A stretch of 64,000 bases of DNA, from contig QAKR01000043.1 in the NCBI GenBank assembly GCA_003343705.1, forward strand, positions 25,237 through 89,236. Reading direction: 5' to 3'. Origin of the DNA: Clostridiales bacterium. GTDB lineage: Bacteria; Bacillota; Clostridia; Oscillospirales; UBA644. Of this stretch, positions 31,946 to 36,860 are shown in pieces. The notes beneath the pieces are model-generated. The model did no database searches. It was given only the letters and a program-made list of their open reading frames with translations, and was not told the DNA's origin. Position 1 is the stretch's first letter; each line of letters begins with the position of its first letter. Position numbers and translations under genes: made by a program.

Positions 31946-33886
31946 TTAAATATTTTCAATTGTGTTTGAGGGCGGGAGGCAATTGTTATTCTTACAAACA
32001 TAATAAGTTGTTTTATTATTTAACAATCTATACTCCTGTGTTGGTTTTTCTAAAACCGTAACAACTGAATCAATAGGGATTATGCAAGATATTTTTTTTA
32101 ACTCTTTTGGATCTTTAAGCACAGCAGTTATTCTTTGCGGCGGTTTTATATAATCGAAAAGAGCTGTAAGAAAAAAAGAAAAACCCGCGGGATATTGTTC
32201 TGAATTTGCTGACATGAAATCAACTTGTTTGTTTAACAATCTCATATAGTCCTCATTATCCGTAAGATAATAAAGCCTTAAAAGATTATATGTCATAACG
32301 GAATTTCCGCTGGGGATTGACAGATCATACGTTTCTTTAGGACGAATAATCAACTGTTCATTCTCATTACCGTATAAATAAAATCCGCCTTTTTTATGAT
32401 CATAAAAGTTTAAAATTGTTATATCACAAAAACTTATAGCTTTATTAAAATAATATTTATTAAATGTTGTTTCATAAAGGCAAATCAAAGCAAAAGTATA
32501 AAACGCGTAATCATCAAGAAACCCTTTGCTACCGTTTTTTTGTGATCTAAAGCTGACATAAAGTAAACCATTTTTTAATAGATTTTTTTCTATAAATTGT
32601 TGAGCTTTTTCTGCTGCATTTAAATAAACATCTTTATCACTTACACGATATAAATAAGCAAAGGCAGCTATTGCCAATGAATTCCATGCAGTTAATATTT
32701 TATCATCTAAATGAAGCGTATTTCTATTTTTCCGGTAATTATATATTAACGGCAAATATTCATCATATTTTCCACTTAAATCATCATTATTTAAGAGGTT
32801 CGGAATATTCTCACCATTTAAATCTCCATTTTCGGTAATATCATAATATTTATTAAATTCAGCCCCGACTTTTTCACCTAAAAGATTAATTATTTCAAAA
32901 GGCTTAAATAAATAATACTTACCTTCCACACCGTTAATATCTGCATCTTGTGCACTGTAAAATCCACCTTCAGGGCTCGTCATCTCACGCATAATATACA
33001 ATGCAGTTTTTTCTGCAACATTTAAGTAGAAAGCATTTTTGGTAATAGAATACGCTTTGCAATAGCTCATAACTAACAATGAATTGTCATATAGCATTTT
33101 CTCAAAATGGGGTATTAAAAAAGCATTATCGGTAGAGTAGCGAGAAAACCCATAACCTACATGATCAAAGATCCCGCCGCAGTACATTTTTTTAAGTGTA
33201 ATCTCAACCATATTCAAAGCTTCTGAATCTTTGCTTGCCTCATAATATTTCATTAAAAACAATAGATTATGAGGCGTTGGAAATTTGGGCGCAGGCCCAA
33301 ACCCACCAAAATCCTTGTCAAAACGTTGTTTAAAAATATTTACTGCAAGGTCAATCAGATTAACATCTGTTTTTGTTGAATTAGTTGATTCATGATTCAA
33401 ATATAGTACAATTTCATCTGCAGATTGCAATAAAGCTTCACGGTCTGATTTCCACTTTTCATCAATTATCTGAAGAAGCTGAATAAACCCTATTGCACCG
33501 TAATGAGAGTCTTTAGGAAAATACGTTCCCGCAAAAAAGGGCTTTTGATCACAGGTCATGAAAATGCTTGTCGGCCAGCCTGCATTCCCGGTAAAAGCCT
33601 GGCATACCTGCATATAAATACTGTCTATATCCGGGCGTTCTTCTTTATCAACTTTTATAGATATAAAATTTTCATTCAAGAGTGTTGCAACATTTTCATC
33701 CTCAAAGCTTTCATGAGCCATCACATGACACCAATGGCAAGTACTATACCCTATGCTTAAAAAAATCGGCTTGTCCTCTATCTTTGCTTTCTCAAAAGCT
33801 TCATCACACCACGGATACCAATTTACAGGATTTTCCGCATGTTGCAAAAGATATGGGCTTGTTTGGCTTTGTAAACGGTTTTTCAA
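31946..33886 (-). CDS. thioredoxin-domain protein (DUF255/YyaL-like, six-hairpin C-terminal domain)
   Basis: [18 protein letters not shown] and [11 protein letters not shown] blocks. 646 aa. TTG start with RBS aggggtga. Confidence 0.85.
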
Positions 33887-33934
33887 AGTATCACCCCTAT
33901 AAGTAGTATTCTTAATGAAATTATATTTTATGTA

Positions 33935-33972
33935 AAAAATAAGATCGCAACTTAAATATTGCGATCTTTTTT
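33935..33972 (-). terminator. intrinsic terminator after the superoxide dismutase gene
   Basis: aagatcgcaa / ttgcgatctt form a 10-bp stem with T-rich sequence on the minus-strand 3' side. Confidence 0.65.
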
Positions 33973-33973
33973 A

Positions 33974-34606
33974 TTATTTTATACAATTTAAATACCTTTG
34001 ATTTACCTCATCCCAATTAATAACATTAAACCAGTCGTCAATATAATCAGCCCTGAGATTATAATGTTTTAAATAATAAGCATGTTCCCAAACATCAAGG
34101 GCAATAAGAGGACATAAGTTTTGTTCAAGCGGAGTATTTTGATTTGGGGTTGTTACAATTTTTAACTTTCCGTTATCGTATACAAGCCATGCATACCCTG
34201 AACCGAAAACAGAAAGTGCAGTTTTTTTTAAAAGGCCTTTAAAATCTTCAAAACTTCCGAAATTTTTATTTATAGATTCTGCCATTGTATCTGAAACAGT
34301 TGTTTTTTGTGGTGACATCTGGTTAAAATATAATAAATGGTTATACACACCACCGGAATTATTTCGTATGGGGGCTTGCAAATCCTTAGGCAAATTAGGC
34401 AAATTTACTATTAATTGTTCAAGAGAACACCGTTGCAACTGCGGATATCCTTTTAAGATTGTATTTAAATTATTTATGTATGTTTGTAAATGTTTATCAT
34501 GATGTAAGTACATTGTTTTTTCATCAATATAAGGTTCTAATGCGTTATATGCATATGGTAATGGCTCGTTAACAAACGGATAGTACTGATTGATCATAAT
34601 TTTCAC
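33974..34606 (-). CDS. sodA: Fe/Mn superoxide dismutase
   Basis: LPYAYNALEPYID, HHDKHLQTY and DVWEHAYYL metal-ligand blocks. Confidence 0.9.
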   Translation of the reverse strand: MKIMINQYYPFVNEPLPYAYNALEPYIDEKTMYLHHDKHLQTYINNLNTILKGYPQLQRCSLEQLIVNLPNLPKDLQAPIRNNSGGVYNHLLYFNQMSPQKTTVSDTMAESINKNFGSFEDFKGLLKKTALSVFGSGYAWLVYDNGKLKIVTTPNQNTPLEQNLCPLIALDVWEHAYYLKHYNLRADYIDDWFNVINWDEVNQRYLNCIK

Positions 34607-34650
34607 CTCTGTATCATTTTATGACAAAAAGACAGAACTGTGCTTAATTG

Positions 34651-35205
34651 TTACAATACAATTCCGTATGCTCCGGTTGTTGTATCACAAAATATGGGAT
34701 AATGAGGTGGTATAAAGGTAAAGACTATAAAAGCTAAAAAAATCACTATAATTGTTATAACAGAAAAAATAATTTTTAGAGCAGTCGGTTTAACATATGT
34801 ATAGACATGTATGGCAAGTTTTAATGCAATAAAATAACAAATATAAACTAAAATTATATCAAAAATTAAAGATTCAATGCCCAACGCACCTGTGTAAGAA
34901 TAAAATATAAATAAAACTGTTAAAGGGGCTGTAACAACAGAAACTGCAGTTGCAATAATCCACTTATGCAGGTCAATTTGACATTTTCTTTTTTTAATAA
35001 AATACATTATAATCCACCATAAAAGGTTCGGAAAAACCATGAATTTTAAATGTTCCCAAACGCTTTCATTTACAGGATTAAACAGTCCAACTATTATTAA
35101 ATTTCCGCTTAATGCATACGCAAAATGAGAAAAACTTGCAATAAGGCCTAAGATAATAGTATTAATTAATACAAACAGTATACCGAATCTGCATTCTTTA
35201 CTCAT
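34651..35205 (-). CDS. polytopic membrane protein of unknown function (DUF6512-like, from memory)
   Basis: Six hydrophobic segments and an ESVWEHLKF block. No enzymatic motif recognised. Confidence 0.55.
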   Translation of the reverse strand: MSKECRFGILFVLINTIILGLIASFSHFAYALSGNLIIVGLFNPVNESVWEHLKFMVFPNLLWWIIMYFIKKRKCQIDLHKWIIATAVSVVTAPLTVLFIFYSYTGALGIESLIFDIILVYICYFIALKLAIHVYTYVKPTALKIIFSVITIIVIFLAFIVFTFIPPHYPIFCDTTTGAYGIVL

Positions 35206-35411
35206 AAAATTACCTTCACTAATTTTTGTTTCATTATATGATAAAAAAGCATATTTGTTTCATTTGATTTAAATATAAACAATTTAACCGTAAATCTTTA
35301 TAACCTTAGTTTCTTTTGCATGGATTTCCAGATGGTATATTATATAAGCTCAGTTTTTCAGATAATATTGTACTCATAAAAACATTATACCTTTACAAAA
35401 TAAATTTATTA

Positions 35412-36263
35412 TTAATTCTTATAAAATATATCTCCGTTACATTCAACCTCTCCATAAATTTTTTCACAAGTTATATTTCCACTACACTCAACAGAACCAT
35501 TTATATTACCACAGTTAATCTGAGTGCATTCAACAGACCCCTCAACATTACCACAATAAACTTGTTGTCCCGCTTCTACAGAACCACCAACATTACCACA
35601 ACTAACGTTTTGTCCTGCATCTATCGAATATCCCACATTACCACAATTAACTCCAGCCCCTGCATCAACATCTCCTGTAACATTACCACAGTTCACGTCA
35701 CAACCTGCACTTACTCCTCCGTTTATTTCACTATTGCAATTAATATTACATCCAGCATTCGCACCGCCGTTAATACCACCGCCAGAATTAATATCACACC
35801 CTGCAGTTGCTCCACCATTTATAATATTACAATTTATGTCACAAGCTGCATTTGCACCGTTTTTAATTTCTCCACATTCAATATTACAATAGCTTACAAC
35901 ATTTAATGCTTCACCATTATATTTAAATATAAATTTCGATATATCATCACATTTTTCTAAAATTTTATGTCCTTTATACACTACACCACGTATAGTTTCA
36001 TCATCACACCATGGCAAATCTTGCGTTAAATCAAAATGTGGCTCTTTTATAATTACCTTGCCAAACAGGTCATCAATGTGCACACCAAATATATCTGCAA
36101 GAACAGGTAATAACGTAATATCCGGGCTTGATTGGCCATTTTCCCATTTTGATATTGCCTGAAAAGACAAATTCACCTTTTCAGCAAGTGATTCTTGCGT
36201 TAAATTATTGGCTTTACGTAAAAATGATATATTATCTGCTAATATTTTTGAGTAATTTTTCAT
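35412..36263 (-). CDS. XRE-family HTH regulator fused to a Cys/Gly/Asn-rich ~15-residue repeat (solenoid-like) domain
   Basis: N-terminal LTQESLAEKVNLSFQAISKWENG is an HTH_3 signature. The C-terminal ~155 aa hold about 10 repeats of the type CGNVGGSVEAGQQVY, with 17 Cys. I prefer the ATG at 36263 (RBS aaagggga). Confidence 0.75.
   Translation of the reverse strand: MKNYSKILADNISFLRKANNLTQESLAEKVNLSFQAISKWENGQSSPDITLLPVLADIFGVHIDDLFGKVIIKEPHFDLTQDLPWCDDETIRGVVYKGHKILEKCDDISKFIFKYNGEALNVVSYCNIECGEIKNGANAACDINCNIINGGATAGCDINSGGGINGGANAGCNINCNSEINGGVSAGCDVNCGNVTGDVDAGAGVNCGNVGYSIDAGQNVSCGNVGGSVEAGQQVYCGNVEGSVECTQINCGNINGSVECSGNITCEKIYGEVECNGDIFYKN
35424..35888 (-). repeat. in-frame 42-48 nt tandem coding repeats
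   Basis: The plus-strand motif acattaccaca recurs at exact 45-nt spacing (accaca at 35550, 35595, 35640, 35685). A 42-nt spaced copy sits at 35508. Confidence 0.85.
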
Positions 36264-36331
36264 GAGAACATCCCCTTTCGTTAATAACATTATAAATCAT
36301 GAAAATAATTTACACCATAACCTATTTGTTG

Positions 36332-36376
36332 AAAAAATTATGGTACAATTCAACTAATAGTTGAATTGTACCATAA
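36332..36376 (-). terminator. 39-nt perfect palindrome plus U6; strong minus-strand intrinsic terminator or attenuator upstream of the XRE gene
   Basis: ttatggtacaattcaacta-a-tagttgaattgtaccataa (36338-36376, 19-bp arms). A6 on the plus strand (36332-36337) gives U6 after the hairpin on the minus strand. Confidence 0.65.
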
Positions 36377-36527
36377 AATATTAAGAATTTCAATATATTA
36401 TACGCTATATTTTTTTTGGACATTAAGTGTATTCACTGAGTAATAGAAATAACTGTCATATCATATAAGCATAAATTAACCTGGTTTGAGAATCTCTTGC
36501 TTTTCTGCACTACTCCCTGTTGAAATA

Positions 36528-36556
36528 TTATTAATTAATGCTGTACCTATTTTCAA
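36528..36556 (-). promoter_or_regulatory. candidate minus-strand promoter inside the non-coding gap
   Basis: Minus strand: TTGAAA (36551-36556), 17 nt spacer, TAATAA (36528-36533). Confidence 0.4.
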
Positions 36557-36614
36557 GAACAATCTTAATATGATTAACAAGCCTTGCCTTTCTGCGGAAA
36601 GAGCTGTGGTGCGG

Positions 36615-36641
36615 AAAAAGTGTCCACCAGACACTTTTTTT
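36615..36641. terminator. A/U-flanked hairpin (terminator-like in both orientations)
   Basis: aaaaagtgtc-cacca-gacacttttttt. Confidence 0.5.
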
Positions 36642-36681
36642 ACTCGCACCCTTCAAGTCCTGTACCTTATCAAATGCAAAT

Positions 36682-36711
36682 AAAAACAGCACCCTAATGG
36701 GTGCTGTTTTT
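36682..36711 (-). terminator. intrinsic terminator immediately 3' of tRNA-Leu
   Basis: aacagcaccc / gggtgctgtt form a 10-bp stem flanked by A and T runs. Confidence 0.8.
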
Positions 36712-36714
36712 ATT

Positions 36715-36801
36715 TGGTGCGGTCAACAGGACTTGAACCTGCACGAACTCGCGTTCACCAGCCCCTCAAGCTGGCGTGTCTGCCTATTCCACCATGACCG
36801 C
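36715..36801 (-). tRNA. tRNA-Leu (anticodon GAG), class II with long variable arm
   Basis: Hand fold of the reverse complement. Acceptor GCGGTCA/TGACCGC, anticodon loop UU-GAG-GG, long variable arm, T-loop GGTTCAAGTCC, encoded CCA. 87 nt. Confidence 0.9.
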
Positions 36802-36831: not shown

Positions 36832-36860
36832 ATTATATCAATAAAATCGATTTTTGTCAA
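36832..36860 (-). promoter_or_regulatory. promoter of tRNA-Leu
   Basis: Minus strand: TTGACA (36855-36860), 17 nt spacer, TATAAT (36832-36837). Confidence 0.65.

Follow-up and report, generated by a model that had tools for sequence, protein, structure and literature searches.

An XRE-type regulator of Clostridia with a predicted Cys-lined, bactofilin-like beta-helix tail and a putative operator ahead of its gene

The gene, its product and its surroundings

The window, which is the whole 64-kb stretch of Clostridiales DNA that was analyzed, carries on its minus strand a coding sequence for a regulator (35412..36263; 283 aa plus stop codon, from the ORF list and the sequence). The product is 100% identical to a database entry from a Clostridiales bacterium MAG, the 283-aa 'hypothetical protein DBX47_06040'. 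A ribosome-binding site, AAAGGGGATG (36269-36278, minus strand), could be read from the sequence ~5 nt ahead of the start ATG at 36263, and is conserved in the homolog locus L013. An in-frame ATG at 36290 is unlikely to serve as the start, because the identical database protein has 283 aa.

The N-terminal domain (residues 1-68; 36060..36263, minus strand) is a helix-turn-helix (HTH) of the XRE or Cro/C1 type. Pfam HTH_3 (PF01381) matched residues 15-66 at E=1.8e-15, with 57.1 bits against a cut-off of 23. AF2 modeled the five helices of the Cro/C1 fold at residues 4-18, 23-30, 34-41, 49-59 and 63-67, with pLDDT 91-98; the Pfam match and these helices bear out the XRE domain that the earlier note had placed at residues 1-68. 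In Foldseek the domain superposed on the XRE repressors ImmR, C.BclI, P22 c2 and DdrO with rmsd of 0.9-2 A.

Residues 69-125 (35889..36059, minus strand) were resolved, using family conservation and AF2, into a linker and a conserved N-terminal cap for the beta-helix that follows. AF2 confidence is low over linker residues 69-85, which are probably flexible. The cap has the motif LPW-x-DD-x-x-(I/L)R-x-VV-x-x-G-x-K, whose W, D, R and G are almost invariant family-wide, and its AF2 strands lie at residues 90-93 and 112-124 (pLDDT 77-85). A minority of tail relatives have a SHOCT-like N-terminus in place of the HTH, and in these non-HTH relatives the identical cap type is found after it.

The remainder of the protein (residues 126-283; 35415..35888, minus strand) is a repeat array of ~10 rungs of 14-16 aa, delimited by lag identity, register and AF2. 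Residue identity at lag 15 was 0.385, whereas the best lag in 2000 shuffles reached 0.166 on average and 0.252 at most. Ten units fall in register (130-144, 145-159, 160-175, 176-191, 192-206, 207-221, 222-236, 237-250, 251-265 and 266-280), and position 1 is Cys in nine of them. The whole protein has 19 Cys, 17 of them in the array, where the Cys fraction is 10.8%, compared with 1.8% across the long ORFs of the window. By register layout, lag-15 identity and composition, the coordinates, repeat count, pattern and count of 17 Cys given in the earlier note are all correct. For the full protein AF2 produced a beta-solenoid with mean pLDDT 89, exceeding 95 over residues 170-283, and pTM 0.68; modeled alone, the tail had mean pLDDT 86. 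The proposal of a solenoid thus holds as a confident prediction, and the AlphaFold check that had been recommended for the repeat domain returned a folded array, not a disordered one. Net charge over the 158 tail residues is -14 (family median -12), and in the repeat logo Asp/Glu ladders occupy the outward positions 7 and 9. We describe the tail as a predicted long (at least 10 rungs), acidic, single-chain beta-helix.

No solved structure matching the tail was found by PDB sequence, PDB profile or Foldseek searches. A single-sequence search of PDB chains gave no match, and the tail profile gave only non-significant ones: a DARPin, antifreeze protein 3P4G (E=0.044) and the bactofilin BacA (E=0.92). 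Foldseek with the full-length model returned HTH proteins only; with the tail-only model nothing was better than E=0.14 and all matches were generic beta-helices, those to DUF4097-type 'putative adhesins' structures being likewise non-significant. Neither the tail nor its HTH has another copy within the 64 kb. PHROGs and PADLOC searches matched the HTH alone and left the tail without any match, and we rejected a phage or defence-system origin.

Eight homolog loci, the window included, presented eight different neighborhoods. The window gene lies near DUF6512 and superoxide dismutase (SOD) genes; the other loci showed DUF305 with an ABC transporter, a GHKL ATPase (HATPase_c_5) with DUF6125 and rubredoxin, a small ORF, MazG-like with RsgA, UvrC with an ABC ATPase, GH95 with AlaRS, and Tex with GDSL lipases. 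A conserved gene neighborhood or operon partner was rejected on this basis. The polytopic membrane protein, next to which the earlier note had placed the gene, is not a conserved neighbor either.

A divergent bactofilin-like tail and its Cys ladder

The family falls into 180 clusters when grouped at 90% identity, and has 597 representatives (E<=1e-3) at 50%. Nearly all of the 50%-identity clusters come from Clostridia MAGs, as do all of the full-length genome matches. Protein lengths range from 182 to >400 aa, and the closest homolog (74% identity) has an exact one-repeat deletion. The earlier note had allowed that the protein might belong to a well-characterised family with a known role. Instead, the tail falls outside every Pfam and NCBIfam model, and our literature search on HTH-bactofilin fusions and Cys-ladder beta-helix regulators turned up no account of this family. 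The family is previously unstudied.

The periodicity had also been likened to that of bactofilins, a resemblance that is real but distant. Against Pfam Bactofilin (PF04519) the window protein scored 11.6 bits at full length and 13.5 bits for the tail alone, below the cut-off of 27.9, with the sub-threshold match at residues 223-279; typical Cys-rich relatives scored 14-19 bits. Among 20 family tails, 14 matched PF04519 at E<=1 (best E=5.6e-8), and Bactofilin was the only Pfam family recurrently matched. The connection passes through P0016, a Cys-poor relative that exceeds the PF04519 cut-off (31.5 bits, residues 201-264) and has an E-value of 3.9e-26 against the window tail. On these profile matches the tail is a divergent, distant bactofilin-like helix, its homology being transitive via P0016. 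Direct Foldseek comparison of the tail with BacA (2N3D) gave no significant similarity (E=5.1, TM 0.13-0.21); repeat proteins of different length align poorly.

Bactofilins (PF04519; Caulobacter BacA, PDB 2N3D) share with the predicted fold of the tail a single-chain beta-helix built of short, Gly-punctuated repeats around V/I/A cores. The window helix differs in having at least 10 rungs of 15-16 residues with one conserved Cys per rung; BacA has about six windings, longer than these rungs. Architecture differs as well. Bactofilins have short tails, often with an N-terminal membrane-targeting sequence, whereas the window protein starts with a folded HTH followed by the conserved cap, and has no hydrophobic or amphipathic tail.

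Cys conservation was scored over 582 repeat units from 120 proteins, and position 1 is Cys in 87% of them, so the Cys positions stressed in the earlier note are indeed conserved in homologs. This figure exceeds what a purely steric role of the Cys would need, since Ala, Val or Ser would also pack. Individual position-1 columns are 85-100% Cys, the remainder being I/V/A/S and never His or Asp. Cys at position 10 alternates with Ala, and the additional Cys at positions 10 and 12 show no conservation. The repeat logo shows polar residues at positions 15, 7 and 9 and V/C/V/V/A at positions 14, 1, 4, 8 and 10; the DSSP strands are V-x-C and V-x-A. Strand alternation and the substitution spectrum together point to an inward orientation of the position-1 Cys. 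Because it is predicted to face inward and is replaced only by I/V/A/S, this Cys looks like part of a packed core and not like a metal site. We infer that the conserved Cys, with the inward Val and Ala, mainly serves to pack a helix that, at 15 residues per turn, is unusually narrow.

The metal or redox sensing suggested in the earlier note finds no support in this pattern, in which each rung has a single conserved Cys, predicted to lie on the inner face of the V-x-C strand. It can nonetheless be put as a definite alternative, in which thiols stacked ~4.8 A apart from rung to rung would oxidize to inter-rung disulfides, or bind soft metals or Fe-S. The altered rigidity or oligomeric state of the helix would then alter DNA binding, giving an obligate anaerobe an oxygen or oxidant alarm. 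The strong Cys enrichment of the tail and the position-1 conservation would suit such a sensor, as would some of its surroundings: the next genes downstream in the window encode DUF6512, an Fe/Mn superoxide dismutase and a thioredoxin-like DUF255 protein, the P0009 locus adjoins rubredoxin and a flavodiiron protein, and every host belongs to the anaerobic Clostridia. The typical family repeat, however, has a single Cys per rung without CxxC-type chelating pairs, and the chelating or disulfide-competent, ligand-interchangeable pairs of a thiol sensor were not seen. The ladder is absent from P0016 and P0067, which have Val or Ala at the Cys position, and even the closest homolog has lost two Cys (C188V and C192S). 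Oxidative-stress neighbors occur in only two of the eight contexts, and the SOD and DUF6512 genes have no operator in front. We therefore consider a redox or metal sensor unlikely. Its boldest form is a long shot, namely that the buried ladder is a built-in oxidant or soft-metal sensor, in which disulfide zipping or metal threading alters self-association of the helix and so switches repressors of gut anaerobes. If true, Cys-ladder sensing would be a signaling mechanism undescribed for any beta-helix or XRE regulator.

A conserved palindrome upstream of the gene

Upstream of the gene lies a 39-bp perfect palindrome (36338..36376), here termed O1, which we take as a putative operator from its inverted repeat and its conservation in the family. 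The repeat (I1) pairs 19 nt with 19 nt at 100% complementarity. Its core, TCAAC-N5-GTTGA at 36350-36364, reads TCAACTATTAGTTGA and is the sole perfect core match in the 64 kb; relaxed matches with one mismatch are at chance level in the window.

The same motif recurs in the family. CAAC-N5-GTTG is found once within 250 nt upstream of the gene at 50 of 55 loci, and also at L013, and the family palindrome has the consensus TTYCAACC-N3-GGTTGRAA. These are 50 sites in 13.5 kb, where ~0.2 would be expected. The remaining 298 kb held only 10 sites, and five of these belong to the same genes, at 267-451 nt upstream. When the upstream regions were searched for palindromes without bias, this motif came out as the best one in most of them. 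XRE regulators bind palindromic operators as dimers, commonly at their own promoters, and on this computational evidence nearly every family member carries a putative palindromic binding site upstream of its own gene. This recurrent upstream palindrome is new here. Genes that combine this HTH clade with other C-terminal domains are likewise preceded by the operator. There is one operator cluster per homolog locus, and no operator elsewhere in the 64 kb. A metagenome scan for TTCAACCNNNGGTTGAA yielded 120 loci, mostly environmental chance matches; only three adjoin an HTH gene of this clade, and no regulon could be derived from the scan.

A putative weaker operator, O2 (TCAACAAATAGGTTA; 36318..36332, minus strand), is centered 32 bp downstream of O1 and matches six of the eight core bases. 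The half-site TTCAACAAAT is present in L013 as well. Where 0.21 would be expected per offset, second sites in the family were enriched at +21/22, with 13 loci, and over +30 to +38; offsets on the upstream side showed no peak. The weaker second site is thus often placed two or three helical turns downstream of the main palindrome.

The best promoter-like element of the region, TTGAAA-17 nt-TACAAT with a TG extension (36365..36393, minus strand), was identified by consensus match only (10/12 plus TG). The left arm of O1 includes the -10 hexamer of this element, and at L013 a TATAAT immediately abuts TCAAC. Since O1 overlaps the -10/start region of this element, the protein most likely represses its own transcription.

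The earlier note had placed the gene downstream of a 'heavily structured leader'. The structures are really a tRNA-Leu gene with its terminator hairpin, another hairpin and the operator palindrome. Rfam detected only the tRNA in the upstream region, and between species the palindrome keeps its sequence instead of covarying. On these grounds we rejected a riboswitch or leader RNA, and the mode of conservation fits a protein site; we regard the palindrome as a putative protein-binding site.

A possible mechanism and related systems

The protein is best read as a one-component regulator of the XRE family that is cytoplasmic and controls its own gene. Other members of its HTH clade have TPR, methyltransferase, phosphoribosyltransferase-like or membrane domains in the place of the tail, which suggests that the tail is an input or oligomerisation module. 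We lean towards a repressor that acts on its own gene and self-associates, or docks onto partners, through its beta-helix, and give this somewhat better than even chances. An HTH dimer would bind the palindromic operator TTYCAACC-N3-GGTTGRAA, and occupancy of O1 over the -10/start region would repress transcription of the regulator's own gene. We infer that the tail mediates self-association into a dimer of dimers or a higher-order form, which could in turn give cooperative occupancy of O1 and the weaker site two or three helical turns away. Through the tail the regulator may also attach to other beta-helical scaffolds, which would set how much HTH is available for DNA. Tail-to-tail pairing in the bactofilin style would set the HTHs ~100 A apart, which is incompatible with a 15-bp palindrome, so dimers that occupy O1 must be joined at the HTH or lie side by side.

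Repression of this kind has well-known parallels. Lambda CI, 434 and P22 c2 are phage-type repressors with a C-terminal oligomerisation domain. Like them, the window protein combines an N-terminal Cro/C1-type HTH with a palindromic operator (putative here) over its own promoter-like element, and the spacing of the second site, by whole helical turns, suggests cooperative binding. Unlike them, it has a wholly different C-terminal fold, the beta-helix, and no phage context.

Very short coils with Cys or other small residues turned inward are also known from insect antifreeze proteins, which are secreted and disulfide-bonded with coils of 12 or 15 residues, and from pentapeptide repeats, which form four-sided coils of 20 residues. 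Neither type gave a significant match to the tail; nearest was 3P4G, the Ca-dependent bacterial antifreeze protein noted above. Toastrack modules (DUF4097/DUF2154/DUF2807; YvlB, LiaG), which can have SHOCT-like N-termini, are cytoplasmic beta-helical domains proposed as interaction platforms coupled to transcription (PMC11237479). The window tail resembles them as a cytoplasmic beta-helical repeat domain, and some of its relatives have a SHOCT-like N-terminus. Its similarity to DUF4097 is negligible, however (one of 20 family tails, E=0.34), and the window locus has no linked PspC, LiaF or membrane partner.

A precedent for bactofilins acting on a Firmicute HTH regulator is BacR (YhbD) of B. 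subtilis, which regulates its own operon and is held at the membrane by the bactofilins BacE/F, lowering its DNA binding (PMC13649987). DNA binding and localisation of BacR are thus controlled by bactofilin beta-helices; BacR belongs to DUF4004, not XRE, and BacE and BacF are separate polypeptides from the same operon (PMC13649987). In the window protein, by contrast, a single chain holds both the HTH and the bactofilin-like helix, and none of the eight neighborhoods has a linked bactofilin gene.

This precedent of bactofilin scaffolds recruiting a DNA-binding protein (PMC13649987) also favors a different role, that of a DNA-tethering polymer. The helix would polymerise, or co-polymerise with genuine bactofilins, and the HTH would anchor sites on the DNA, for nucleoid organization or segregation, with autoregulation as a side effect. 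The transitive homology of the tail to a polymer-forming domain and the variable helix length agree with such a role, as do P0130, P0239 and P0182, in which a Pfam-positive bactofilin segment is joined to this tail module. We nonetheless judge it improbable: the conserved cap closes the N-terminal end of the helix, a membrane-targeting tail is missing, there is no linked bactofilin gene, and a single operator cluster at each locus, with no others in the 64 kb, is the pattern typical of an autoregulator specific to its own gene.

That the acidic helix might instead act as an intramolecular DNA mimic, folding back on the HTH or competing with DNA in the manner of pentapeptide-repeat DNA mimics until a signal at the helix frees the HTH, would accord with the tail's negative charge, its outward Asp/Glu ladders and the low-confidence linker, but is very unlikely given that AF2 shows no confident HTH-helix contact (pTM 0.68, low-pLDDT linker), that the HTH itself is net negative (-2), and that pentapeptide-repeat proteins are unmatched by sequence or fold.

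Bactofilin-type beta-helices are known as cytoskeletal scaffolds; in this family a divergent form is joined to a domain for sequence-specific DNA binding. The fusion of helix and HTH is spread over hundreds of gut and rumen Clostridia lineages that lack a genetic model organism. The operator shared with paralogs that bear other C-terminal domains suggests a modular clade of regulators, with possible cross-talk, and its conservation makes regulon prediction from complete genomes and in-vitro binding assays approachable. The near-invariant Cys of each rung is either a clear example of packing in a 15-residue beta-helix or a new kind of thiol switch. For the autoregulated repressor that we favor, the family allows one to ask whether, in a one-component regulator, oligomerisation or signal input can be the task of a beta-helix.

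A regulator with a repeat-built tail, and its family

The regulator gene (35412..36263, minus strand) encodes 283 amino acids. Its ATG at 36263 closely follows a purine-rich ribosome-binding sequence, AAAGGGGATG (36269-36278). An alternative in-frame ATG at 36290 would add nine residues; we prefer 36263 because an identical database entry (Clostridiales bacterium MAG, 'hypothetical protein DBX47_06040') also has 283. Residues 15-66 match Pfam HTH_3 (E=1.8e-15). Seventeen of the 19 cysteines fall within residues 126-283, where cysteine content is 10.8%, against 1.8% for the long ORFs of the window. Ten in-register units of 14-16 residues span residues 130-280, nine of them with Cys at position 1, and residue identity at lag 15 is 0.385; across 2000 shuffles, no lag gave more than 0.252. 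The ORF coordinates, HTH, repeat pattern and cysteine count of the earlier note were thus accurate. At the DNA level the 45-nt unit is recognizable in only 2.8 copies, so the array is old, without recent expansion. Antisense to it runs an ORF of 196 aa (35316-35906, plus strand), a mirror-image product of repetitive coding for which we found no support as a gene.

AlphaFold2, given a family alignment of 64 sequences, modeled the full protein at a mean pLDDT of 89: five helices (residues 1-68), then a linker of low confidence and a capping region, followed by a regular beta-solenoid of the sort that the earlier note had envisaged for the tail. Its pLDDT exceeds 95 across residues 170-283; one loop, 158-168, is of low confidence. 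The tail modeled separately gave pLDDT 86 and pTM 0.79. Foldseek with the full model returned XRE repressors only; with the tail model the best match had E=0.14, and the matches listed were all beta-helices (tapirin, the Ca-dependent antifreeze protein 3P4G, LpxD/GlmU, hemolysin A, MinC, DUF4097-type 'adhesins'), with bactofilin BacA at rank 36. The PDB gave non-significant matches only, whether searched by sequence or by profile. In the models, then, the fold class of the tail is clear, with no close relative among solved structures.

Searching 5.8 billion proteins yielded 180 clusters, nearly all of the same architecture with a periodicity of 15 or 16 residues. With only the tail as query, exhaustive phmmer searching gave 597 representatives (50% identity, E<=1e-3), 209 of them at E<=1e-10. 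Most begin with the same XRE HTH; a minority carry a SHOCT-like helix pair, a bactofilin-like segment or a membrane anchor instead. Full-length matches in GTDB species genomes number ~56, all in Clostridia MAGs, mostly from animal gut; host taxa include Oscillospiraceae, Ruminococcaceae, Lachnospiraceae, Acutalibacteraceae, Faecousia, Acetatifactor, Herbinix, Anaerocolumna and Vallitaleaceae. Short variants of 187-207 aa at five loci (L070, L071, L075, L076 and L088) keep the HTH and the PW-DD-IR cap but have a conserved inserted 'CIEVSFPRNCNETTRQYFKVEVFGNL' segment and only three or four rungs; the operator described below is present at two of the five. No source gave a specific protein name (NCBIfam, PHROGs and PADLOC match the HTH only), and literature searches returned nothing on this family. 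The family is uncharacterized and widespread, and combines known kinds, an XRE regulator and a bactofilin-like helix, rather than forming a new category.

A conserved operator upstream

Upstream of the gene lies a perfect 39-bp palindrome, O1 (36338-36376), with core TCAACTATTAGTTGA at 36350-36364. A homolog with 74% identity has AATTCAAC-N5-GTTGAATT at the equivalent place, and an unbiased best-palindrome search of the 200 nt upstream of 57 family genes recovered the same motif in most. Of 55 genes, 50 have a single CAAC-N5-GTTG in the 250 nt before them, which makes 50 sites in 13.5 kb against ~0.2 expected by chance; the remaining 298 kb hold 10 sites, and half of these precede the same genes at a distance of 267-451 nt. 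As a consensus, the motif is TTYCAACC-N3-GGTTGRAA. Its core bases are kept in sequence, without compensatory change, which points to a protein-binding site rather than an RNA hairpin. A pattern scan of metagenomes also caught five copies of TTCAACCNNNGGTTGAA on the contig L162 (818, 1210, 1366, 1522, 1678), four of them at exact 156-nt spacing; these form an unrelated tandem repeat array.

O1 is the only perfect site in the 64-kb window. The best promoter-like element (TTGAAA-17-TACAAT, with TG) is overlapped by it at the -10 hexamer and likely start, and such a site over a predicted promoter is the classical arrangement for autorepression. Toward the gene, a weaker second site is enriched: 13 loci have it at +21/22 nt and others at +30 to +38 nt, against an expectation of 0.21 per offset; upstream offsets are flat. 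Here the putative second site, O2 (TCAACAAATAGGTTA, 36318-36332), is 32 bp from O1. Spacing of two or three helical turns suggests that two dimers may bind cooperatively on one DNA face, as a self-associating C-terminal domain would allow. At L019, a locus in a Eubacteriales MAG, there are three extra operator-like sites (-1314, -660 and +1743, counted from the gene start at 2995). One separates an asparagine synthase gene from a small HTH gene of 74 aa, and another precedes an ABC permease start by ~23 nt; all may be further targets or chance matches.

HTH genes of the same clade (52-64% identical) with different C-terminal parts share the upstream operator: CAAC-N5-GTTG lies 74-190 nt upstream at L084, L085, L086, L091, L092, L093, L095, L140 and L198. 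Their alternative parts comprise TPR-like repeats, a methyltransferase (Paenibacillus macerans), a phosphoribosyltransferase-like domain, membrane segments and others. Such sharing points to one operator common to a modular, autoregulated one-component clade, in which the beta-helix would occupy a variable 'input' slot. Cross-regulation among paralogs is possible.

Genomic surroundings

The 'heavily structured leader' of the earlier note resolves into separate elements, O1 among them. Much of it is explained by a tRNA-Leu(GAG) gene (36715-36801, minus strand) with a perfect promoter (TTGACA-17-TATAAT with TG, 36832-36860) and an 18-bp perfect terminator hairpin (36677-36716). Between that terminator and the regulator promoter, within 36470-36715, lie a nested hairpin, GGTGCG...(AAAAAGTGTC/GACACTTTTT)...CGCACC (~36595-36640, minus strand), and then a small CTTTC/GAAAG hairpin. 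With the tRNA terminator counted in, the stretch is 246 nt long; it folds with z=-5.6 and matches no Rfam family; the nested hairpin could be a small RNA or a second terminator.

Downstream, the polytopic membrane protein noted earlier belongs to DUF6512 (34651..35205). Beyond it come an Fe/Mn superoxide dismutase and a DUF255 protein that is thioredoxin-like and also has an (alpha/alpha)6-barrel-like region. Together the three form an oxidative-stress-flavored cluster (31946-35205, minus strand) in an anaerobe. We found no terminator-like site between the regulator and DUF6512 genes, and no operator before the DUF6512, superoxide dismutase or DUF255 genes. Eight homolog loci showed eight different contexts, so the membrane-protein neighbor is present here but not conserved.

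The cysteine ladder and the role of the tail

Bactofilin was the sole family to be matched repeatedly, by 14 of 20 tails (best E=5.6e-8), whereas similarity of the family tails to Toastrack/DUF4097 was negligible. The window protein itself scores 11.6 to 13.5 bits against PF04519, under the Pfam cut-off of 27.9; the bactofilin likeness suggested in the earlier note holds, but at a distance. A Cys-poor relative, P0016, passes at 31.5 bits and matches the window tail at E=3.9e-26, and three longer relatives (P0130, P0239, P0182) join a Pfam-positive bactofilin segment to the module seen in this tail. From these matches we regard the tail as probably a divergent, Cys-containing, shorter-pitch branch of bactofilin-like beta-helices, not a strict bactofilin.

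A repeat logo from 582 units in 120 proteins has C at position 1 (87%), G at 2 (88%), N or D at 3, V or I at 4, G at 6 (95%), D or N at 7, V at 8, D at 9, A at 10 (86%), G at 11 (87%), V or I at 14 and a polar residue at 15; the position-1 cysteines are thus kept in most homologs. Model strands are V14-x15-C1 and V8-x9-A10, and their alternation would turn the position-1 Cys inward with Val and Ala, and polar or acidic positions outward.

That the ladder senses redox or metal state, as proposed earlier, is unlikely. Its extreme conservation, the anaerobic hosts and neighbors of oxidative-stress type at two of eight loci would suit such a sensor, but the substitution spectrum argues against it. 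Across the family alignment, Cys makes up 85-100% of the columns of the window protein's position-1 cysteines, and I, V, A or S the rest; at position 10 Cys interchanges with Ala; and the position-12 Cys, the 'AGC-DIN-C' feature of the first rungs of the window protein, is not conserved. In a repeat scan two members, P0016 and P0067, lacked the ladder, P0016 having a 16-residue repeat with Val, Ile or Ala at that position, and the closest homolog (74% identity) lacks exactly one repeat and carries C188V and C192S. Such a pattern is typical of a buried packing position rather than of a set of ligands.

On balance we favor an autorepressing XRE regulator that would repress its own gene through O1, with the bactofilin-like helix supplying self-association or docking onto a partner and the cysteines packing a narrow helix from inside. 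A published analogue comes from B. subtilis, where the bactofilins BacE/F, acting in trans, reduce the DNA binding of BacR and determine where it is located (PMC13649987). End-to-end pairing in bactofilin style would put the HTHs ~100 Å apart, so the dimer reading the 15-bp core palindrome of O1 would have to form through the HTH or side-by-side helices. A DNA-tethering polymer is a doubtful alternative. The tail has a net charge of -14 (family median -12). That it acts as an acidic DNA mimic is very improbable.

The value of the family lies in its conserved operator, through which it can be tested at once, and in the question of why each rung retains one Cys.
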